A stretch of DNA of 32,000 nt from assembly GCF_001767395.1 (NCBI RefSeq), contig NZ_CP017014.1, positions 3,581,012 to 3,613,011 on the forward strand, written 5' to 3'. A program made the position numbers and the translations under genes. This stretch comes from Rhodococcus sp. WMMA185. Lineage in GTDB: Bacteria > Actinomycetota > Actinomycetes > Mycobacteriales > Mycobacteriaceae. Within the stretch, counting starts at the first letter, position 1, and every line of letters starts with the position of its first letter. The notes under the pieces are model-generated. The model was not told the DNA's origin. It did no database searches and worked only from the letters and a program-made list of their open reading frames with translations. This document shows, in pieces, positions 10,080 through 23,042 of the stretch.

Positions 10080-10435
10080 CACATGCCGGCGGTCGCGGAG
10101 AACGCGCTCATCATAAGGATGACGTAGAGCACCGCAAACACGAGACCGGCGGGTATACACCACAGAGCGAACTTCTTGGCGTCCTCGGCGGCCTTGCGGG
10201 CGGCATCGAACTGGCCTTGCGACCACAGCGAGTTCACCCGCGTTGCCTTGACGATCGAGACGATGCCGAGTGGCAGACAGCAGAGGACCGTCGCCAGGAT
10301 CGCCCAGACCAGGTTGTTGTCCGGCGGGGTCATGTACCCCTGCGGGGGCGGAGCCGGGTAACCGTAGTTCGGATGCGGGGGGACGCCCTGCTGTCCGTAG
10401 TTCGGGTCCTGGCTAGGGTACGGATTCTCGGTCAC
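10079..10435 (-). CDS. CD225/dispanin (interferon-induced transmembrane protein-like) family protein with Pro/Tyr-rich N-terminus
   Basis: NNLVWAILATVLCCLPLGIVSIVKATRVNSLWSQGQFDAARKAAEDAKKF is the CD225 core (W.I..T..CC.P.GI..IV.A..V). GTG 10435 is taken as start (MTENPYPSQDPNYGQQG...) because the 29 codons upstream have low GC3. Confidence 0.8.
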   Translation of the reverse strand: MTENPYPSQDPNYGQQGVPPHPNYGYPAPPPQGYMTPPDNNLVWAILATVLCCLPLGIVSIVKATRVNSLWSQGQFDAARKAAEDAKKFALWCIPAGLVFAVLYVILMMSAFSATAGM

Positions 10436-10573
10436 TCGTTGGCCTCGCTTGGTTTGAACGCTGGGATGTGGTCGAAACGAACAGACTGGGCAGTCTAACT
10501 TTGCTTGCACAACTGCTCCCACTCCCTCTAGGAGTGCGGCGAAGGCGGACGCTCAGCAGGACGCTTCCTCGGT

Positions 10574-13500
10574 TCACAGACCCCGATCGATCAGGTCGAG
10601 GATTTCCTCGCTGGTTGCCGAGTGAATCTTGTCTACCGCGTCGGCATGTGCATCGCCCGCGCCGACTTCCGCCAGCAAGAGTCTCAGCCGCTGCGCGATC
10701 GCCGACCGCGCCTCGCCGTCTTCGCCGAGTTGCGCGATGGCCGCGCGCAGCCGATCGAGGTCGGCAAGAGCCACCGAAGCCGGGTCCGGGGCGAGCTCCG
10801 CACGTAGGAACTCCGCGATGGCACGCGAATTCGGATGATCGAACACCACGGTCGGCGGCAACCGTAGCCCGGTAGCGGCACCGAGATAGTTGCGCAGAGC
10901 AACGGCGGCGAGCGAGTCGAAGCCGAGTTCCTTGAACGCCTGATCCGGGTCGACCTTGTCTGCGGCGGCATAACCGAGGACTTCGGCGGCGCCGGTCCGC
11001 ACCAGATCGAGCATCAGGTGCCGCTGCTCTGGAATCGACCGATTGGCAAGGCGCTGCTCCCAATCCGACGGTCCGGACCCCACCGATCCGGGTTCTGCTG
11101 CGCCCGATCCCGACGACCGCGGGCGCGATTCCCGGATCAGGCCACGCAGCGGAGCAGGGACGTAGGGTGCCGCCGTACCGGAGTGGTCGAACCGGGCGGC
11201 CGCCACGGCTGCGACACCTGCTGTCAACGCGGTATCGAGGAGTGTCAGACCGTCGACTGCTGACAGTGGGACCATTCCACTGCGGCGCGCGCGAGCGAGA
11301 TCGATCGCACCGAGGTTGTCGGTCATAGCGCTCGGCGGCGCCCACATCCCCCACGCAATCGAGAGCGCCGGCAGGCCAAGGGCGTGGCGGTGACGGGCGA
11401 GGGCGTCAAGGAACATGTTCGCGGCCGCGTAGTTCGCCTGGCCGGGCGCTCCGAGGACCCCAGCCAGCGACGAGAACATGACGAACGCCTGCAAGTCACA
11501 CTTCTCCGTCAACCGGTGCAGGTGCCAGGCGGCATCGACCTTCGGTCGGAGCACTGCGTCGAGACGGTCGGTGGTGAGCGAAGGCAGGGTGGCGTCATCT
11601 ATCACCCCTGCCGTGTGGATCACCGCCGTCAGTGGGTGCTCGGAAGGTATCTCGGCCAGCAATCCGGAAACTGCCGTCTCGTCGGACGTATCGCAGGCAA
11701 CGATGCTCACCTCGGCGCCCGTGGCGACCAGTTCGCGGCGCAACTCGTCGCAGCCCTCGGCATCGGGTCCGCGCCGGCTGGTCAGCAACAAATGCCGTGC
11801 CCCGTGCTCGGTGACCAAATGACGAGCCACCAACGAACCCAAAGCGCCGGTGCCACCGGTGACCAGAACGGTCCCGCGGGGATCGAATGGCGAAACGGCG
11901 GAATCGTGCACGGGACGCAATCGCCGCAACCGCGGCGCAAGCAAGGTGCCATTCCGCATTGCCGATTGCGGTTCCCCACTTGCCAGAGCCGACGTGATTG
12001 CGGCCGACGCGGTCGCAACTTCCGCGTCCGCCCCTTCGTCGAGGTCGATCAGCACGAATCGATCCGGGTTCTCGTTTTGCGCTGAGCCGACGAGACCCCA
12101 CACTGCAGCAGCGGCGAGGTCGGTTCGATCATCGCGCCGCGAATCGTCATCGGTGGCAATCGCATTCCGGGTCACGATCACCAGGGGGCTGTTTGCGACA
12201 TCGTCTTCCAGCCACTTCTGCAGCAGGTTCAGCACCCGGGCGCACAGTTGGTGGGTCGCCTCGGGACCTTGCTCGCCCTCGGTGCCGCACCCGACCAACA
12301 CAGCCCTAGGCCGCCGGTCATCCTCGTCCGCCATGGATTCCATCGCGGTTCGCAGAGCTTCCACGTCCGGATACCTCGGGAGGTCCGTACCAAATCCCTT
12401 GTCACCAAATCCCTTGTCACCAAATCCCTTGTCACCAAATACGTTGTCGGCGAACCCATCGGCACCGAGCACAACCATCGGACCGATGGTCTGCTCAGAT
12501 GAATCGACCTCGACGCGAACCCACGACAGCCGGTGCAATCGACGAGCGGCGGAACCGCCGGCGCCTTCCCCGTCAGTCACCCTCTGCACGACCCGCAGCG
12601 CGTCGACCGTCAGCACCGGCCTACCCTCCGGGTCGATGGCGGCCAGCCGATAGCGTCCGTCCTCGCCCGCTTCGAACTGCACCGATACCGCCTCTGCGCC
12701 AACGGTGTGCAGACGGACTCCCGCCCAGTCCATCGGCCAGCCATCCCAACCGAGGATCGGCTCGAGTACGTCCTGCAGTAGCGCCGGATGGATGCCGAAC
12801 CCGCTTGTGTCGATGCCTTCTTCGAGGCCCACCTCGATCTCGGTACCTTCTTCGAGGCCTACTTCGGCACCCTCATCAACTTTCGGTACCTCCTTGGCAA
12901 CGCTGACGACGTCGTCGATCGTCGCCGAAGCGTTTCGGACCCAAGCGTCCTCGCTGTCGTCCTCGCCCGGATTCGACGAAATCGTGACGGTGCGATCGCC
13001 GCTACCACCGTCCGGGGACACCAACACGCGAATCGATGCCGACCCCGACGACGACAGGGTCACTGGATGATGAAGAGTGAGTTCCCGGATATGGTCGAAA
13101 CCGACGTGGTGGGCCGCGTGCAATGTGAGTTCGACCAGTACGGACGGCGACACGATCTGCGGGCCATCGGCCGAGGACGAGTCGGCATCATCACGCGGCC
13201 CGGCCGCGGTGTCATCACGCGGCCCAGCCGCGGTGTCATCACGCGGCCCAGCCGCGGTGTCATCGACCGGCGCTGCCACGAGCCACGAATCTCGCCGAAG
13301 CGACAACTGACCGGTGAACAACGTCGAGTCGTCGTCGAGCGTCATGGTCGCCCCGAGCAGCGGATGATTCGCTGCGCTCAACCCCAGCTCCGTCGGATCA
13401 CCGGCATTTCGCATGGGCTCCGACGGCCAGAAGGAACGACGCTGGAATGCGTAGGTGGGCAAGTTCACCCGGCGGCGGCCAGGCAACACCCGATCCCAGT

Positions 13501-16500
13501 CGACCGCTACTCCGCGCACATAGGCGGCAGCAACCGCCTCCATGATCGCGTGTGCCTCGGTTCGACGTTTCGGCAGTGTCGCGATCGTATCCGGGACGAG
13601 TTCGGCAGCGTATGCGGCGAGGGTTGCGCCGGGACCGACTTCGATGAAGCGGGTGACGCCGAGCTCTTCGAGGGCGTGCACGCCGTCATGGAAGCGCACG
13701 GGCTGCCGGATGTGCCTCGTCCAGTATTCCGGAGACGTGAGTTCGTCGGCGGTGGCCAAACGTCCGGTCTCATTGGAAACGACAGGAATCTTCGGCTGCT
13801 GCGCCGACAACCCCGACACAACGGCGGTGAACTCGTCGAGGATGGGTTCCATCAGGGCGGAATGAAAGGCCCGCTCGACCCGCAGGGTCGTGTTCTTGAT
13901 GTCCGCTGCCTTCAACTCGGTTGCGACAGCTTGCACCTCGTCCTCTCCGCCGGAGAGGACCACCGATTCGGTGCCGTTGACCGCTGCCAGATCGACCCGG
14001 CCGTCGATCTGCGCCATGATGTCTTCTGCTCGCGCCCGTACGGCGATCATCAGGCCAGGTTCGGTCGATTGCATCAATCGTCCACGGTTGCCCACCAGCG
14101 CGGCGGCATCGGGCAGGCTGAACACCCCCGCGACATGTGCAGCGGTGATCTCCCCGATCGAATGACCGATCAGGTAGTCGGGGGTAATGCCCCAATCCCG
14201 CAGCAGCCGATAGAGCGCGACCTCGACGGCGAACAGTGCCGGTTGGGTGTAGTCGGTGCTGTCGAGCTTCGCGTCTCCGCCGTCAGCCTCGTCCCAGATC
14301 ACTTTTTGCACCGGGGTTTTCACATGTTCGTCGAGGGCAGCACACACGTCGTCCATCGCGTCGGCGAACACCGGGTAAGAATCGTAGAGGCCGCGGCCCA
14401 TCCCGACCCGCTGTGCTCCTTGGCCGGTGAACATGAATGCCGTCTTCCCACGGGCACTAGTCCCGGTGATGACGTTGCCACCCGGTCGGCCTTCCGCGAT
14501 ACGGGCCAAACCCTCACGGAGTTCGGCCAAGGTTTGTCCGATCACCGCCGCGCGATGCGGGAAGCTGGATCGGGTGGTGGCCAGTGAGTATGCGAGATCG
14601 GCCAGATCCGGTAGGTCTTCCTCATCCTTGTCGAGGAATTCCTCCAAACGAGAGGCTTGCGCACGCAGCGCATCAGCCGACTTCCCGGAGATCACCCAGA
14701 CCAGCGGCGACTCCGGTGGCTGCGGAGCTTGCGGTTCCGGCTCGGCGGGCGGCGCCTCGAGGATCATGTGTGCGTTGGTGCCGCTGATACCGAACGACGA
14801 CACCGCCGCTCGTCGAGGCCGTCCGGTCTCGGGCCACGCGATCGGTTCGGCAAGCAGAGAGACCTCGCCCGCTGTCCAATCAACGTGTCGTGTCGGAGCA
14901 TCGCCGTGCAGGCTCGGCGGCAGCACCCCGTGCCGCATCGCCATCACCATCTTGATCACGCCGGCCACTCCCGCCGCCGCCTGGGAATGCCCGATGTTCG
15001 ACTTGACCGAACCGAGCCATAGCGGCCGACCGGCCCGATCTTGTCCGTAGGTGGCCAATAGTGCCTGCGCCTCGATCGGATCCCCCAGTGTCGTGCCTGT
15101 GCCATGCGCTTCCACTGCGTCGATATCGGTTGGGCCGAGCGAGGCGTTGGCCAGCGCCTGGCGGATCACCCGTTCCTGGGACGGCCCGTTCGGGGCAGTC
15201 AATCCGTTGGAGGCCCCGTCCTGGTTGACCGCCGAACCGCGAATGGTCGCCAGCACCCGATGGCCGTTGCGTCGTGCGTCGCTGAGCCGTTCGAGCACCA
15301 CCATTCCGGAGCCTTCACTCAATCCGGTGCCGTCCGCCCGGTCGGAGAACGGCTTGCACCGTCCATCCGGGGCGAGCCCGCGCTGGCGGCTGAACTCGAC
15401 CAGCACACCGGGCGTGGACATCACCGTCGCTCCCCCGGCCAGCGCGAGGGGACATTCACCGTCGCGCAGGGCCTGTGCCGCAAGGTGCATAGCCACCAGT
15501 GACGACGAGCAGGCCGTGTCGACGGTAACTGCGGGGCCGGTGAAGCCGAGAGAGTAGGAGATCCGGCCGGATGCCACGCTGTCGCTGGTCCCGGTCATCA
15601 GATAGCCCTCGGCATCGACATTTCGCTGCGCCATCAAATGGAAGCCGTAGTCGCCACCCATCAGCCCGATGTACACCCCGGTGCCGGTCAGATCGGGCGA
15701 GTCGGGCTGGATACCCGCCTGCTCCAAGGCTTCCCAGGCACTCTCGAGAAGAAGTCGGTGCTGCGGGTCCATCGCGATCGCTTCACGAGGGCCGACCCCG
15801 AAGAACGCGGCATCGAATTCATCGGCGTCGTAGAGGAATCCCCCCTCTTTCATATACGTGGTGCCACTGCGGTCGGGGTCGGGGTCGTAGACCTCGTCGA
15901 GATCCCAGCCTCGGTTGTCGGGATACGCACCCGCGGCGTTGTGGCCATCGCGTACGAGTCGCCACAGGTCGTCTGCGGAGTACACCTTGCCCGGGTACCT
16001 GCAGGCCATGCCGACGATCACGATCGGGTCGTCGTCCTCGCTGGTACGTGCTGCGCGTGTCGGTTGCGCAGTTGAACTGCTGCCGAGTAGGCGGGCGAGG
16101 AGTTCGCGCGTGAGAGCGTCCGCGGTGGGATGGTCGAAGACCACCGTTGCCGCCAGGCTCACGCCGGTGGCGTTGGCGAGGTTGTTGCGCAGTTGAACGG
16201 CGGTCAGGGAGTCGAAGCCGAGTTGCTTGAAGGCGCGTTCCGGGTCGATCACCTCTTTGCCGTCGTAGCCGAGCACCGCGGCCACGTGCGTGGTGACGAT
16301 GTCGAGTACTCGGCTGTGGCGCTCCCCGGGATCGAGTGCACGCAACTCGTCGGCAAGACCGGTAGGCGACTCGGTGGCTGCGGCGCGCCGTCGACGGATA
16401 CCGAGAACCCGCCGCAGGATCGGCGGCACCGATTCACCCTCGGTTCTCGAGGCGCGCATCGACAGTCGTATCGGGACGACCAACGGTCGGTTCAAGACCA

Positions 16501-19500
16501 ACGCGGCATCGAACAGGTCGGGCCCCGACTCCGGGCTGATGGTATCGATACCGTTGCGCTGCAAGCGGTCGAGATCGGTCGCGCTCAGATGGGACGTCAT
16601 CCCACTCGGACGGTCCCACAAGCCCCACGCCATCGAGATCGCGGGCAATCCGCGGACGCGGCGGTGCTGAGCAAGTGCGTCGAGAAAGACATTCGCGGCG
16701 GCATAGTTTGCCTGACCGGCGCCGCCGAGCACACCAGCCGCAGAGGAGAACAGCACGAAGGCCGACAACTCGCGATCACGGGTTAGTTCGTGCAGATGCC
16801 AGGAGCCGTCCACCTTAGGGCGAAGAACCGCGTGCAACTGCTCCTCACTCAACGTGGCGGCAGTACCATCTTCGAGCACCCCGGCGGCATGGACCACTCC
16901 GGACAGGTCGGGAATGTCTGCAAGCAGGGCAGCGATCGCCGCGCGGTCGGCCACGTCGCAGGCGGCGGCGCTGACCTCCGCCCCAGTGCCGGCGAACTCG
17001 GCCTGAAGTTCGGCCACACTCTCGGCGTCGAGCGCCCGCCGGCCGGTCAACACCACTCGGCGCACCCCGTACCGGTCCACGAGGTGACGCGCGATCAGCC
17101 TCCCGATGGTTCCCGTACCTCCGGTGATCAAGATCGTTCCGGTCGGACCGAAGGGGGGCGGGCTTTCTTCGGATTCAGCCTTGAACGCAGCCGTAGCGAG
17201 TACGGGCGCAAGCAGCGAACCGTCCCGGATCGCCACCTGAGGTTCCTTGCAAGCCAATGCCATTGACAGCAACGCCGGATCTGGCGTTTCTCCGGCCGGC
17301 ACATCGAGGTCCACCAGCGTGATGCGATCAGGATTCTCGTTCTGCACCGCGCTGATCAGGCCCCACGCAGGTGCGGCGGCCACGTCGTCGATCGGTTCGT
17401 CGTCGCGGACCGGGACAGCGAGCCTGGTGGTGACCAACAGGTGGGTCTCGTCCAGGCCGTCTTCGCGGAGCCAGTACTGAATCGCGCGCAAAGCCTCCTG
17501 CGCGGCAGCGTGTGCTCGACTCGGCATGGGCGACTCGTCGCCTGGATGAAGATCCAACCACAGCACGCGATCGGTGTGATCGCCTCCGGCGAGTGCGTCC
17601 TGGAGTGGCATCAAGTCCGCAGCGGCAGTGGTGGCCGCTGTGGTGGGTATCCACTCCACACGGTAGAGGCTGCTGCCTACCCCAGCCGTGGAGACACTCG
17701 TATCCCCGAGAGGCCGCAGCGCCAGCGAGTCCGCTGTCAACACCCGTTTCCCGACCGCGTCGTATGCGGATACCCGGTATCGCTCCGCCCCGGTCATGGT
17801 GATGTGCACACGCAGCGATCTTGCACCCTCAGCGTGCAGTTGTACGTTGTCCCACACAAACGGCAGCCGAACGTCGCGTGCACCAGTTTCCGCGGCCCCG
17901 AACGCAATCACGTGCAACGCCGCGTCCAGCACTGCCGGATGGATCCCGTATCCCGCGACTTCGGGGTCGTCTCCGCCTAGCCGGACCTCGCCATACAGCT
18001 CGTCGCCGCGACGCCACGCTGCCCGCAGCCCTCGGAAGGTCGGGCCGTATCCGTAGCCGACCTCGTCGAGCAGCCCGTAGAGACCGCTGACGTCGATCGG
18101 AGTGGCATCGGCCGGCGGCCACTGCTGCTCGGTAGTGTCATCGACGTCCACCGACGCCGAAAGCGTGCCGCTGGCGTGCCGCGTCCACGGAGCTTCCGGC
18201 GGGGCATCTGCAGACCTCGAGTGCACCGCCACCGTGGCTCGGCCGGCTTCACCGTCGGCGAGCACGCTGACCTGTAGGGCAACTTCACCCTCGACCGGAA
18301 TCGTCAAGGGCACTTCGATGGCGAGTTCCTCGATCCGAGCGCACCCGATGCGGTTCCCCGCGTGCAAGGCGAGCTCGACGAAAGCGGTGCCGGGCAGTAT
18401 CACGGTTCCGTTCACGGCGTGATCGCTGAGCCACGGAAAACGTTCCGGTGAAAGCAGGCCCGTGAACACCGCACCACGGCCGTCACCGAGTTCTACGGAT
18501 GCGGCGAGCATCGGGTGTCCGCCCGCTTCCATGCCGGCCGACGCGAAATCACCCTGCGGCGCAGGACTGTCCAACCAGAAACGGCGGTGCGTGAAGCCGT
18601 ATGTAGGCAGTTCAACCCACGGGTGCCGACCGTCGCGCCGAGCCCAGCCCACGCGGTCCCACTCGATGTCCAATCCGTGTACCCACGCCTCGGCGAGTGC
18701 CGCGGTGAACTGACGCAGCCCTGCACGGTCGCGGCGGATAGTGCCGATTATTCGGCCGGCGACACCCGTAGCGTCAAGGGTTTCTTGCATCGGCACGGTC
18801 AGCACAGGGTGGCTGCACGATTCGATGAACAACCTATACCCGTCCGCGACAAGCGACCTCGTCGCTTCTTCGAACCGAACTGGGTGGCGCAGATTCCTGT
18901 ACCAGTAGCCCGCGTCCAGGGCGGTTCCCTCGAGCTCACCACCCGTGACAGCCGAGTAGAACGGAATCCGCGACCGGCTCGGGGTGATCGAGGCGAGAGC
19001 GTCGAGAATCGGTTGGCGCAGGACCGAGACATCCGCGCAGTGCGAGGCGTATTCCACAGCGATCCGCCTGGCCTGCACGCCCTCGGCCTCCAACTGCCCC
19101 ACCAAGGCATCGAGGGCATCGTCTGCACCGGACACCACCGTCGCGGACGGCCCGTTGATCGCCGCTACCTCGATGGCACCGGACCAGGGTTGAATCCTCT
19201 GCCGTACAGCGTCCGGGGGCAGCGGCACTGAGGCCATACCTCCGCCTCGCCGGGCCGACGTCACAATCACCCTGCTTCGTGCCGCGACGACAAGAGCTGC
19301 GTCGGAAAGGCTCAGAGCGCCGCTGATGTAGGCGGCGGCAATCTCGCCTTGCGAGTGCCCGACCACAGCAGCCGGTTCGACGCCGTGGGAGCGCCACAGC
19401 TCGGCGAGACCGACCATCACTGCGAACAGCGCGGGTTGCACCACATCGGCCCGGTCCAGCGCGGCCGGATCCGGATCACGCAGGACATCGAGTAATGAGA

Positions 19501-21334
19501 ACGACGTGTACGGTGCCAGCGCGTCGGCGCACTCCTGCACGGCATCGGCGAAAGCTGGCGACGAGTCCAGCAATTCCGTGGCCATACCTACCCACTGCGA
19601 ACCCTGACCCGGGAAAACGAAGACCGGCCTGTCCCCGGCCTCCAACGCCGCACCGGTGACCAAGTCGGCGCTGGGCGCACCTCGACTCAGGGCGTCGAGA
19701 CCGGCCAAGAGGCTCTGCGGCTCTGTGCCGATCACCGCCGCGCGATGGTCGAACCTGGTACGTGAGGTCAGCAATGCGCTCGCCACCGCGGCGGGCGGCA
19801 CCTCGGGGTGGTCGGCGGCATACTCACGTAGCCGCTGTGCCTGGGTGCGCAGAGCGTGTTCGGTCTGGCCCGAAACGCACCAGGCCAAGACTTCGGCCGC
19901 GTGGGGGCTCGCCTCCTGAGATGACGGATCATGCTCCTTCGGGGCCGGCAGGAACTGTTCCAGTACGACATGGGCGTTGGTGCCGCTGATGCCGAACGAC
20001 GAGACTGCCGCCCGGCGGGGTCGATCGACCTCCGGCCAATCCCGGTTCTCGGTGAGGAGAGACACCGATCCAGCAGACCAGTCGACGTGCGGGGTCGGCT
20101 GGTCGACGTGCAGCGTCTTCGGTAGGACGCCACGGCGCATCGCCATGATCATTTTGATCACCCCGGCAACACCGGCGGCCGCCTGGGTATGCCCGAGGTT
20201 CGACTTCACCGAGCCCAGCCACAGCGGCCGGTCCGTGGGGCGGTCGCGGCCGTATCCGGCCAACAACGCGGTCGCCTCGATCGGATCGCCCAGCTTGGTC
20301 CCTGTACCGTGCGCCTCGACGGCATCGACGTCGGCCGGATCCAGCCCGGCATTGGCCAGCGCCTGCCGTATCACACGCTCCTGTGCCTGCCTGTTCGGAG
20401 CGGTCAGGCCGTTGCTTGCACCATCCTGGTTCACCGCACTGCCGCGGATTACGGCCAGTACCCGGTGCCCCTTTCGCTCTGCGTCAGAGAGTCGCTCCAA
20501 CGCGATCATCCCAGCACCTTCACCCCAAGCGGTGCCGTCGGCAGACGCGGCGAATGCCTTGCACCTCCCGTCTGGGGCAAGTCCGCGCTGGCGACTGAAC
20601 TCCACGAACACCGCGGGGGTCGCCATAACGGTCGCCCCACCGGCCAGCGCTAGTTCGCACTCACCGGCGCGCAGCGCTTGCATGGCGAGATGGATGGAGA
20701 CCAACGACGACGAGCACGCGGTGTCCACGGTGATCGCCGGACCGGACAGGCCGAAGCTATAGGCCACTCGCCCGGAGGCGACACTCATCGCGTTGCCGGT
20801 GATGAAGTAACCCTCTAGGTCTTCCGGCGGGCGTCCGCCGACACGCGCCGCGTAGTCGATACCGGACAGCCCGGTGAAGACCCCGACCTGGTGGCCGTGC
20901 AACGACCGCGGATCTATCCCGGCATGCTCGAAGGTCTCCCAGCTCGTTTCGAGAAGAAGGCGCTGTTGGGGGTCCATGGCCAGCGCCTCACGCGGGGAGA
21001 TCCCGAAGACCTCGGGATCGAACGCCGCCGGTTCGTCGAGAAAGCTGCCCTGCACCGTGTAGGTTTTGCCCGACTGCTCTGCCTTCGGGTCGTAAAGTTC
21101 GGCCAGACCCCAGCCGCGGTCCTCGGGGAACTTCGTTACGGTTTCCGAACCCGATTCCACCAGACTCCACAGTTCCTGCGGTGATCGCACCCCACCTGGG
21201 AATCTGCAGCCCATCCCGATCACGGCGATCGGTTCGCGGCTCACCCCCTCGGCCTCGCGGAGCTTCTCCCGAGCTTGGTAGAGGTCCGCTGTCACCCGTT
21301 TCAGGTAGTCGAGGAGCTTCGCCTGATCGGCCAT
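10574..21334 (-). CDS. Bimodular type I polyketide synthase: Ndock-KS-AT(mmal)-DH-KR-ACP-KS-AT(mal-like)-DH(degenerate)-KR-ACP-Cdock; no ER, TE or loading module
   Basis: Residue numbers follow the 3627-aa ORF-track translation; nt ranges are approximate. N-dock aa 42-72 ([29 protein letters not shown]). KS1 19958-21235 (DTACSSS C248, [13 protein letters not shown]). AT1 18743-19630 (GHSQGE, YASH 803-806). DH1 17708-18625 (HPML, H1013[18 protein letters not shown]1178AALH). KR1 16598-17146 (GGTGTIG, LED, SSAAG...Y1585AAAN). ACP1 16088-16345 (GFDS1750L). KS2 14756-16033 (C1983). AT2 13583-14449 (GHSIGE, RAFH 2529-2532). DH2* 12578-13474. KR2 11333-11878 (GGTGALG, IDD, Y3343). ACP2 10802-11050 (GFDS3515L). 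C-terminal ~70 aa end in [15 protein letters not shown] 21334 is preferred over 21457, where the 41 upstream codons have lower GC3. Confidence 0.95.
12391..12450 (-). repeat. In-frame 15-nt tandem repeat (3 perfect copies plus 1 degenerate) encoding (GDKGF)3 inside the PKS
   Basis: caaatcccttgtcac occurs at 12391, 12406 and 12421, followed by the degenerate caaatacgttgtcgg. The protein reads [23 protein letters not shown] (aa 3003-3025). It lies in the linker before the structural KR2 subdomain. Confidence 0.95.
12816..12875 (-). repeat. Imperfect 30-nt tandem duplication inside the degenerate DH2 region (encodes EVGLEEG twice)
   Basis: ccttcttcgaggcccacctcg at 12816 and ccttcttcgaggcctacttcg at 12846. 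The protein reads [21 protein letters not shown] (aa 2863-2883). Confidence 0.8.
13187..13261 (-). repeat. In-frame 24-nt tandem repeat (3 copies) encoding (DTAAGPRD)3, inserted at the DH2 active-site motif position
   Basis: Three units of (a/g)tcatcacgcggccc(g/a)gccgcggt start at 13187, 13211 and 13235. The protein reads [32 protein letters not shown] (aa 2731-2760). Confidence 0.95.
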
Positions 21335-21692
21335 TCGAGACCAGCTCCCATCCAAGATCCGCCTTGCCAGCGTAGAAACTTCGATTGTATCCGTGACCAC
21401 GGCCCGGACGCATTGATCCGCAGCGGTGACGGGGGCGCCTAGATCACGATTGGCCACAGTTTCGTGCCCGATTCAGGGCCCGTCGAGAAGCTCGCCACAA
21501 CGCCGTGAAAGCAGGTCAGAACACTTTCCGCCGTTTGCCTCCTCGGAACGAAAGGTGCGGCATACGAAGGTAGTTCGCAATTCGAGCGCGGCACTACCGG
21601 ATACCACGCCGTAGAATTTCGGTGAGGAGGCTATCGCCCTCCCCGGTGCACAATCCCGCAGGCGCGCCCATATCAAGCGGCGGAGAACGACG

Positions 21693-23042
21693 ATGCAATT
21701 TGGAGCCCGATTCGGCAGGTACCGCCTCGACCTTCCAATGTCAGCGGATGCGAACGGCGAGGTCTGGGCAGCATTCGACACGGTCACGAATCAACACGTG
21801 ACCGTGCGCGCGCTACCAGCGGAAACTACCGAGAACGACGAGTACCGCGATCGGTTCGAACGAGTTGCCGGCATTGCGGCGAACATCCACCACCCCTATG
21901 TGCTTCCGGTCCACGACTTCGGGCAGATCGGCGACCGCCTCTTCCTCGCAACCCCGCACATCCAGGGCACCAGCCTGCACACGATGCTCCAGTCCACCGG
22001 CGCGATGGAGGTACCACGCGCGGTCGACATCATCGAACAACTGGCGTCGGCCCTCGAAGCTGTACACGCGGCGGGACTCGCAGAGCAGGTGGTCACGTCG
22101 TCGAACGTTCACATGCAGGAAAACGGGCTGATCTGCCTCACCGACGTCGGGCTCCCCGCTAGTCCGGGCAGGCCGTCGGGGGTCTACGGTCTCGCCTCGG
22201 TGCTGTACGAATGCCTCACCGGCATGCCGTTTCAGCCCTCGGGCGGAAACGAGTTGCCTACACATCCATCGTCGGTCATGCCTACGGTGCCCGCCGGCAT
22301 GGACGCCGTGATCGCGCGGGGCACCGCGGTCGACCCCGCACGACGATACCCGTCCGAAAGCGAATTGGCCGCCGCCGCTCGCGGGGTGGTGGCACCCGCA
22401 CCATCCGTCCCCGAGCCCAGTCCCTCAATCCCTCCGGTCAACTGGAGGCGGCGTGCCATGGTCGCCGGCCTTTCGGTCGTAGCAATCATTGCTGTCGCGA
22501 TCGTCGGCGGCATCGCTATAGGGTCGAGGCCGTCGCCCGACGCGACCGTCCCCGCAGCATCGCCAACGTCTGAACAGGCATCCTCGCCGACCGTGACCAC
22601 TCCGCCGCCTGCCACGACCCATCCGACCCAGGCTGAGCAGGCAGCACCGGAACAGGCACCACAGCAGGCGCAGACCCAGATTGCGGAAACAGCTCCACCT
22701 CAGCAAGCGCCCCAACCCGCACCAGCACCAGCACCAGCACCTGCGCCCCAGGTACTGCCGTGCTACGACGGCTACCAGCACACCCCACCACCGGACGGGC
22801 CGTGCCTCTCGATCGGCTCATCCCCCGAACCGGCACAGGTACCGGCCGCACCCGCGCCACAGGTGCTGCCCTGCTACGACGGCTACCAGCACACCCCACC
22901 ACCGGACGGGCCGTGCCTCCCGATCGGCTCATCCCCCGAACCGGCACAGGTACCGGCCGCACCCGCACCACAGGTGCTGCCCTGCTACGACGGCTACCAG
23001 CACACCCCACCACCGGACGGGCCGTGCCGCAGAATCCCCTGA
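21693..23042 (+). CDS. Single-pass membrane protein: cytoplasmic Ser/Thr-kinase-like pseudokinase domain, TM helix, Pro/Ala/Gln-rich stalk and a tandem Cys-loop repeat ectodomain
   Basis: A Hanks-kinase fold can be aligned by eye to PknB, but key residues are replaced. The G-loop reads SADANG instead of GxGxxG. VAxK becomes VTVR (R39). HRDxKxxN becomes AEQVVTSSN (aa 130-138). DFG becomes DVG (151-153). The activation segment/APE is cut to about 9 aa. TM helix AMVAGLSVVAIIAVAIVGGIAIG (aa 255-277). An (AP)n microsatellite lies at 22719-22742. It is followed by 37-aa repeats QVLPCYDGYQHTPPPDGPC.... Confidence 0.8.
   Translation: MQFGARFGRYRLDLPMSADANGEVWAAFDTVTNQHVTVRALPAETTENDEYRDRFERVAGIAANIHHPYVLPVHDFGQIGDRLFLATPHIQGTSLHTMLQSTGAMEVPRAVDIIEQLASALEAVHAAGLAEQVVTSSNVHMQENGLICLTDVGLPASPGRPSGVYGLASVLYECLTGMPFQPSGGNELPTHPSSVMPTVPAGMDAVIARGTAVDPARRYPSESELAAAARGVVAPAPSVPEPSPSIPPVNWRRRAMVAGLSVVAIIAVAIVGGIAIGSRPSPDATVPAASPTSEQASSPTVTTPPPATTHPTQAEQAAPEQAPQQAQTQIAETAPPQQAPQPAPAPAPAPAPQVLPCYDGYQHTPPPDGPCLSIGSSPEPAQVPAAPAPQVLPCYDGYQHTPPPDGPCLPIGSSPEPAQVPAAPAPQVLPCYDGYQHTPPPDGPCRRIP
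22749..23036 (+). repeat. 111-nt (37-codon) tandem repeat, 2.6 copies, near identical at the DNA level
   Basis: Units start at 22749, 22860 and 22971. Copies 1 and 2 differ at 4 of 111 nt. Copy 3 is identical to copy 2 for 57 nt and then diverges into the stop codon. Confidence 0.95.

Follow-up and report, generated by a model that had tools for sequence, protein, structure and literature searches.

The gene for a two-module type I polyketide synthase (PKS) in Rhodococcus sp. WMMA185 raises the question of how a tandem repeat comes to lie at the active site of one of its two dehydratase (DH) domains. The gene is on the minus strand of a 32,000-nt stretch of contig NZ_CP017014.1, here called the window, and all coordinates are positions in this window. 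A first-pass annotation had described the His motif of the second dehydratase, DH2, as replaced and split by three copies of the peptide TAAGPRDD, and had called such a repeat at a former active site unusual. Here we ask what kind of domain DH2 is and how the repeat relates to the loss of its catalytic residues. Residues, orthologues and predicted structure support DH2 as a putative naturally inactive dehydratase (DH0). We consider it highly probable that the inactive domain is kept as a scaffold, that its loops, having lost their function, tolerate slippage, and that the repeat is a late and lineage-specific event.

The two DH domains of the protein differ in every catalytic signature. DH1 (17678-18517, minus strand, aa 981-1260) has HxxxGxxxxP with H1013, GYGYGPTF and LDAALH, and is presumably a canonical, active domain. 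When excised, it scores 100.9 bits against PF21089 and 93.7 bits against PF14765. For DH2 (12533-13366, minus strand, aa 2698-2975) the evidence comes from PF21089, alignments to structures in the PDB, AlphaFold, Foldseek and its ratio of nonsynonymous to synonymous substitution (dN/dS, omega 0.29). Excised DH2 scores 48.0 bits against PF21089, for which the gathering cut-off is 27, and the match is broken into two stretches by an insertion; once the insertion is removed, the score is 50.3 bits in a single stretch. The solved PKS DHs 6K97, 4LN9, 6OBT, 6OBV and 3EL6 align to DH2 in three pieces (best E 1.2e-21), and their coverage extends to query residues 188-270. The alignment breaks at the His motif, where query residues 1-47 end in WLVAAPVD opposite WLADHTIA and the match restarts at residue 79, before PG...VEL.

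To assign the catalytic columns, we used hmmalign with a DH profile whose positions equal the residues of DH1. Column frequencies were taken from 353 near-full DHs, drawn from the best 150 hits of an exhaustive HMMER search plus two Rhodococcus proteins. The first-pass annotation had read the His position as Ala, and the profile agrees. Ala2729 (codon 13271-13273, minus strand) falls on column 38, which is H in 341 of the 353 DHs, and WLVAA stands opposite the WLADH of 6K97. The rest of the HxxxGxxxxP motif fails as well, with Ser on the Pro column and 32 residues (aa 2734-2765) inserted. The GYxYGPxF columns, also reported missing, are gapped, and the segment across profile positions 130-200 is 40 residues long versus a median of 72. 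At the third site, where LQDVLE had been matched to the LDAALH of DH1, Gln2895 (codon 12773-12775, minus strand) occupies the catalytic Asp column 203 of the DxxxQ/H motif and Glu2899 the H/Q column. Column 203 is D in 335 of the 353 DHs, and Q in both DH2 and its orthologue in Rhodococcus marinonascens. The LPFxW region reads WPMDW in DH2 and WPLVW in R. marinonascens, keeping Pro and Trp and changing Leu and Phe.

No alternative His/Asp dyad is conserved in DH2 among the window and its four orthologues (below); a dyad placed elsewhere in DH2 was one of two observations that the first-pass annotation had named as refuting its proposal. The His residues that remain in DH2 (in HPLLG, LHA, GIHPAL and LHT) are non-catalytic ones also found in DH1. 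Asp2896, beside the former Asp site in the window, is Ala in the orthologues.

The four orthologues date the loss. One, from R. marinonascens NBRC 14363 (L001), is 3614 aa long and 85.7% identical overall, with the same synteny. The protein of Rhodococcoides kyotonense (WP_089244107.1; P0017/L004) is 65% identical over aa 42-3004, and its gene lies between a metallophosphoesterase-YqeY-PBP-WhiB-ArsA block and a Fur/ferritin/FMO block, as in the window. The other two are on metagenomic contigs, one from ENA (ERZ25039511 contig_23325; L003) and one from JGI (L005), the latter 52% identical over the DH2 segment. In all four, DH2 is missing the His, YGP and Asp, and Gln stands at the Asp position throughout (HPxLLQAAL); R. 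kyotonense, L003 and L005 read LLQAAL at this site. The TAAGPRDD unit occurs in none of the four. By these alignments the inactivation is ancestral to at least five lineages and predates their divergence, because orthologues that have no repeat share the loss of His, YGP and Asp. The repeat would be a later event in an already dead loop, since the orthologues without it are already without the His motif. We therefore rejected insertion of the repeat as the cause of inactivation. The description of a motif replaced and split by the repeat holds in that the insertion divides the loop; it does not hold for the replacement, for the repeat did not remove the His. On this comparison the repeat is best read as a consequence of lost constraint and not as the cause of inactivation.

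The PKS open reading frame (ORF) is intact, longer than 3300 aa and at the same chromosomal position in three genomes. The R. kyotonense PKS (L004:10001-20155) is about 240 aa shorter, and its DH2 keeps 7 residues across profile positions 130-200. The relic DH2 thus appears to be at different stages of decay in different species. In L003, frameshifts divide the PKS into small ORFs, more than 12 in all, and the neighbouring COX1 is called at 147 aa. A noisy long-read assembly, rather than a pseudogene, is the probable cause, since the frameshifts hit housekeeping genes such as COX1 too and look like sequencing noise.

The repeat itself was located where it had been described. In the translation, WLVAAPVDD is aa 2725-2733 (13285-13259), followed by TAAGPRDD three times (aa 2734-2757; 13187-13258, minus strand) and, further on, LVELTLHAA (aa 2774-2782). 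At 13188-13264, Tandem Repeats Finder (TRF) gives a score of 147 to a 24-nt unit with a copy number of 3.2 and 98% matches. The repeat had been called perfect. This is right for the peptide; in the DNA, it holds for units 1 and 2, and unit 3 departs from them by two synonymous changes (GCT>GCC and GAC>GAT). Directly upstream on the coding strand lies a degenerate founder unit, VAAPVDD (aa 2727-2733, 21 nt; 13259-13279, minus strand), recognized from the DNA alignment and as the fourth copy of repeat family D1 at 81% identity. Every unit, including the founder, ends in GATGAC. Downstream of the array, ADSSSADG (aa 2758-2765; 13163-13186, minus strand) forms an older extension of the loop according to the hmmalign insert states and the orthologue alignment. 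Its counterpart in R. marinonascens is GDSSSTDD, and diverged versions occur in the orthologues.

The corresponding loops of the orthologues are much shorter. R. marinonascens has WLVTPRVDDGDSSSTDDVQTLSP (22 residues), L005 has SLAAPQPDDGAPPTDAPQTLIP (22 residues) and L003 has WLVPPTIDDGDQPPTGDAKTLLP (about 23 residues). The R. kyotonense loop, WLVDDDQMLLP, has 11 residues and is below the canonical length. Counterparts of the founder unit in the orthologues are VTPRVDD, VPPTIDD and LAAPQPDD. A comparison of the loop DNA shows a difference of exactly 72 nt, the length of the array, between the window and R. marinonascens, which does not have these nucleotides. The three-unit array is suggested to be recent and specific to the lineage of the window; its expansion looks recent because so little separates the units, with no difference between the first two and only two synonymous ones in the third. 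Recent slippage is our inferred origin of the array. A local duplication followed by slippage would fit, as the unit resembles the ancestral local codons (VAAPVDD, LAAPQPDD). Phase variation, in which the repeat would switch the gene on and off, was rejected, as a 24-nt unit alters the length of the loop and never the frame.

To place the loop among other DHs, we added to the 353 domains a further 122 from independent partial PKS proteins (profile query; 120 canonical partial DHs). Counted from the motif Trp to the motif Pro, the loop is exactly 14 residues long in 464 of the 475 surveyed DHs, and the 46 residues of DH2 are the maximum; the long loop is no chance finding. The catalytic His is present in 121 of the 122 added domains, so that about 3% of the surveyed DHs are without it. 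Loss of the His is common in DHs; a loop as long as that of DH2 is not. The position of the repeat, called unusual in the first-pass annotation, appears to have an ordinary explanation, in that dead loops are free to vary and the former YGP site is arrayed as well. An exact-DNA scan of metagenome contigs for the 24-nt unit gave no matches. In an index apparently without long PKS proteins, the raw 310-aa DH2 sequence had no match at E<=1e-10, and DH2 stripped of its low-complexity stretches matched only five short partial DHs.

The array in the His loop is one of three in this part of the protein. A second in-frame array, EVGLEEG (aa 2865-2884; 12806-12865, minus strand; repeat family D3, 30-nt spacing, 85% identity), stands in place of the deleted GYxYGPxF region. 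Its copy number across the five orthologues is 1, 1, 1, 2 and 3, with three copies in R. marinonascens and one each in R. kyotonense, L003 and L005. In R. marinonascens the array is a 30-nt unit in 2.6 copies at 97%. A third in-frame array, (GFGDK)n, is made of four 15-nt units in the linker between DH2 and the ketoreductase domain KR2 (12389-12448, minus strand; TRF score 106, repeat family D2). It too varies in length, with a 10-aa indel against R. marinonascens and a single unit in L003. When the whole PKS of the window is compared with that of R. marinonascens, 58 of the 69 indel residues are within DH2 and the DH2-KR2 linker, which make up about 14% of the protein.

Selective constraint was measured as Nei-Gojobori dN/dS between the window and R. 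marinonascens, with bootstrap 95% confidence intervals. Omega is 0.292 for DH2 (0.207-0.411) and 0.114 for DH1 (0.075-0.168). In comparison, KR2 has 0.11, the ketosynthase domain KS2 0.075 and the interdomain linkers 0.23-0.31, and the whole PKS has an omega of 0.14 with a dS of about 0.56. Compared with DH1, DH2 is under significantly weaker constraint; it is indistinguishable from the linkers and far from neutral. This fits a domain that is kept for its shape and not for its chemistry.

DH2 is predicted to retain the double hot-dog fold, as the first-pass annotation had proposed to check. A first AlphaFold model from a 7-sequence alignment (predicted local distance difference test, pLDDT, 49.5; Foldseek template modelling score, TM, about 0.36) was replaced by one from a 125-sequence alignment, deepened with the 120 partial DHs. 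This model has a mean pLDDT of 82.6 and a predicted TM score of 0.80, and 180 of its 293 residues are at 90 or above. Both halves show the expected strand order and the long central helix, and the second helix-plus-sheet half has a pLDDT above 90. Confidence is low only at the repeat insertion (about residues 41-70, pLDDT about 60), in the EVGLEEG region (residues 160-176, below 50) and in the tail. In a Foldseek search against the PDB, the top 50 matches were all PKS-type DHs or related double hot-dog domains (best E 8e-19, TM 0.65-0.72). The three signatures missing from DH2 and its four orthologues, the purifying selection on the domain (omega 0.29) and the predicted fold support the earlier proposal that DH2 is a non-catalytic relic and may have a structural role.

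These results can be arranged into a sequence of events. His, YGP and Asp would have been lost in the ancestor of at least five lineages, while the folded double hot-dog body was probably retained as module architecture between the acyltransferase domain AT2 and the structural subdomain of KR2. By Pfam order DH2 lies between AT2 and the KR structural subdomain, as is usual in a reducing module. Without catalysis, the loops of the active site would be freed from a fixed length or sequence, because the active site itself was lost. Slippage between short direct repeats, such as the GATGAC unit ends, could then lengthen the sequence harmlessly. In the lineage of the window, a 24-nt unit from the neighbouring VAAPVDD codons would have been amplified to three near-identical copies, leaving a 46-residue loop that is acidic, rich in Pro and Gly and probably disordered.

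Module 2 is predicted to hand on an unbranched beta-hydroxyacyl intermediate, whose configuration would be set by KR2. The KR of this module had been called B-type from its IDD motif. B-type KRs are recognized by an LDD-type motif, the lack of a Trp at the A-type position and the catalytic Tyr. KR2 (11333-11878, minus strand, aa 3194-3375; Pfam KR) has IDD at aa 3286-3288. Its AGVLG stretch has Leu in place of the Trp, and QANYAAAN supplies the catalytic Tyr 3340. By the published motif rules KR2 reads as B-type. AT1 has the motifs GHSQGE and YASH, and AT2 has GHSIGE and RAFHS; such rules predict a specificity for methylmalonyl in AT1 and for malonyl in AT2.

Several observations count against a scaffold-only DH2 with a late repeat. 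PF14765, the C-terminal hot dog, has no match in DH2 at E<=10, and the second hot dog is short by about 30 residues. The AlphaFold alignment consists of canonical DHs, so the model leans to the canonical fold, and the dN/dS values come from a single species pair. Another reading is that the whole PKS is decaying as an incipient pseudogene, or that the three units are an artefact of assembly. Docking domains are present at both ends of the PKS, yet there is no thioesterase (TE) and no partner PKS within 10 kb; the L003 orthologue is split into many small ORFs; and the source assembly appears fragmented. We nevertheless consider this reading very unlikely. Overall omega is 0.14 and that of the KS domains 0.07, the catalytic motifs outside DH2 are intact, ORFs of more than 3300 aa persist at the same locus in three species, and the L003 frameshifts extend to housekeeping genes. 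As for an artefact, typical short reads are longer than the 72-nt array, which carries two distinguishing substitutions. Nor do we give much credit to a non-canonical catalysis of DH2 through other residues, as an isomerase, cyclase, pyran synthase or product-template-like domain, which we judge equally remote. DH-like domains with altered active sites can gain activities (PMC7327777), and the Foldseek matches include the AmbC dehydratase-cyclase, GphF DH1 with its isomerase-inactive variant and the sorangicin pyran synthase. However, DHs with new activities keep the active-site His and are substituted at the Asp (PMC7327777), whereas DH2 is without His, Asp and YGP. The five orthologues share no conserved His or Asp that could take their place, DH2 has the omega of linkers, and R. 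kyotonense has shed still more of the second hot dog.

The lengthened loop could instead have gained a function, acting together with the second acidic array as a flexible tether, as a surface for the acyl carrier protein (ACP) or docking, or as a lid that shields the dead pocket from ACP2, with copy number under selection. Both arrays are in frame and strongly acidic and lie where the former active site opens, purifying selection still acts on DH2 as a whole, and an unrelated His-less DH from Catenulispora (P0126) independently has a 20-aa acidic insert at the same spot. The sequence of the unit is not conserved, however. The orthologues have no TAAGPRDD, their loops together with that of the window run from 11 to 46 residues, with R. 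kyotonense below the canonical length, and AlphaFold confidence is low there. The third array, in a plain linker, is more in line with indels being tolerated generally than with a function tied to one site. On balance we find a selected function of the loop improbable. A bolder form holds that the dead DH2 has been re-used to carry fast-evolving, disordered acidic loops at the old ACP-docking mouth, with repeat number tuning the engagement of ACP2 or a partner; this seems to us slightly less probable again. If true, a relic domain would have come to carry a regulatory or docking element of variable length, and the independent Catenulispora insertion would be a second instance.

If DH2 is an inactive scaffold whose loops have drifted, module 2 should be annotated as KS-AT-DH0-KR-ACP with a malonyl extender and a beta-hydroxy product, and not as a dehydrating module. 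For engineering, the HxxxGxxxxP loop has taken a 32-residue insertion and the YGP region a deletion of about 30 residues in a domain still under purifying selection, and these two places may be permissive where a DH serves only as a scaffold. In evolutionary terms, the domain would illustrate relaxed constraint after the loss of catalysis, with indels and arrays gathering at the former active-site loops and the core conserved at linker-like rates. The understanding of PKS enzymology is unchanged; the locus is an evolutionary curiosity and brings no new mechanism or kind of system.

The rest of the gene is in good order. The longest ORF, 10574-21457 on the minus strand, encodes 3627 aa; from the ORF list, translation, Pfam matches and the start of the orthologue, the gene is likely 10574-21334. 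The first residues of the R. kyotonense orthologue, MADRTKLLDYLKKV, make M42, at 21334, the likely true start. The Pfam order is an N-terminal docking domain (PF08990), KS-AT-DH-KR-ACP, KS-AT-DH0-KR-ACP and a C-terminal docking-like tail. The KS Cys/His/His, the KR Tyr and the ACP DSL, the catalytic motifs outside DH2, are all intact. The docking elements at both ends are of the class-1 type, and the C-terminal tail weakly resembles the docking region of Lsd14. The PKS has neither a TE nor a loading module, and neither a partner PKS nor tailoring genes lie within about 10 kb of it. An antisense ORF of 599 aa (12788-14587, plus strand) has no Pfam match and was regarded as a high-GC artefact.

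Around the PKS lies a housekeeping block, with two ArsA-like genes, WhiB, PBP, YqeY and a metallophosphoesterase on one side and Fur, ferritin and FMO on the other. The same flanking block is found at the R. kyotonense PKS, and the R. marinonascens locus matches on the PBP/ArsA-like side. Between a DUF2752 gene and the 3' end of the PKS lies a gene for a 118-aa CD225/interferon-induced-transmembrane-like protein (about 10226-10580, minus strand; L002:2765-3121). The gene was called on a Logan contig of identical sequence. This contig (SRR12829167, 3.6 kb) carries the neighbouring alpha/beta-hydrolase and ends in the PKS C-terminus. A further tandem repeat, with a 111-nt unit in 2.6 copies and 96% matches, was found at 22737-23028 (plus strand) inside the ORF 21693-23042. 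The translated unit, 37 aa long and rich in Pro, reads APAPQVLPCYDGYQHTPPPDGPCLxIGSSPEPAQVPA. It lies in the C-terminal tail of a Ser/Thr-kinase-like protein whose gene is divergently transcribed with respect to the PKS. The repeat also occurs in R. marinonascens (L001:1-200), where the copies at the end of the locus are 100% identical.

Known isomerase and pyran-synthase variants of the DH keep the catalytic His. DH2 shares with these enoyl-isomerase and pyran-synthase domains, and with the AmbC dehydratase-cyclase, an altered active site and, by prediction, the double hot-dog fold. Unlike the enoyl-isomerase and pyran-synthase variants, it is missing the His in all five orthologues. The solved DHs of DEBS (3EL6), rifamycin DH10 (4LN9), borrelidin and fluvirucin (6OBT, 6OBV) and the fusion DH 6K97 resemble DH2 over both halves, and the predicted structure matches them at a TM of 0.65-0.72; they are active and have HxxxGxxxxP, YGP and DxxxQ/H, whereas DH2 has lost all three. 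A literature search for 'vestigial' DH domains or this Rhodococcus PKS found nothing specific. Natural DHs inactivated by loss of the catalytic His have been documented in several modular PKSs (PMC7327777), and DH2 is, judged by its residues, another case of a naturally inactive DH. Like the DH0 domains of cis-AT modular PKSs, it sits between AT and KR, is predicted to keep the fold, has its His substituted and is predicted to leave a beta-hydroxyl. Unlike other DH0 domains, it has lost all three signatures together with about 30 residues of the second hot dog, its His loop is longer by 32 residues, the longest of the 475 surveyed, and two in-frame arrays lie on the former motif sites. A parallel to this loop is in the fragment NUP51644.1 from a Catenulispora metagenome-assembled genome (P0126, residues about 346-621). 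This DH belongs to an unrelated PKS (36% identity). It too has its His replaced, by Val, has no YGP and carries an insert in the same loop. The insert, QSEGPAESRAEGQAEVRAEL, is a 20-aa acidic low-complexity sequence and not a clean tandem repeat.

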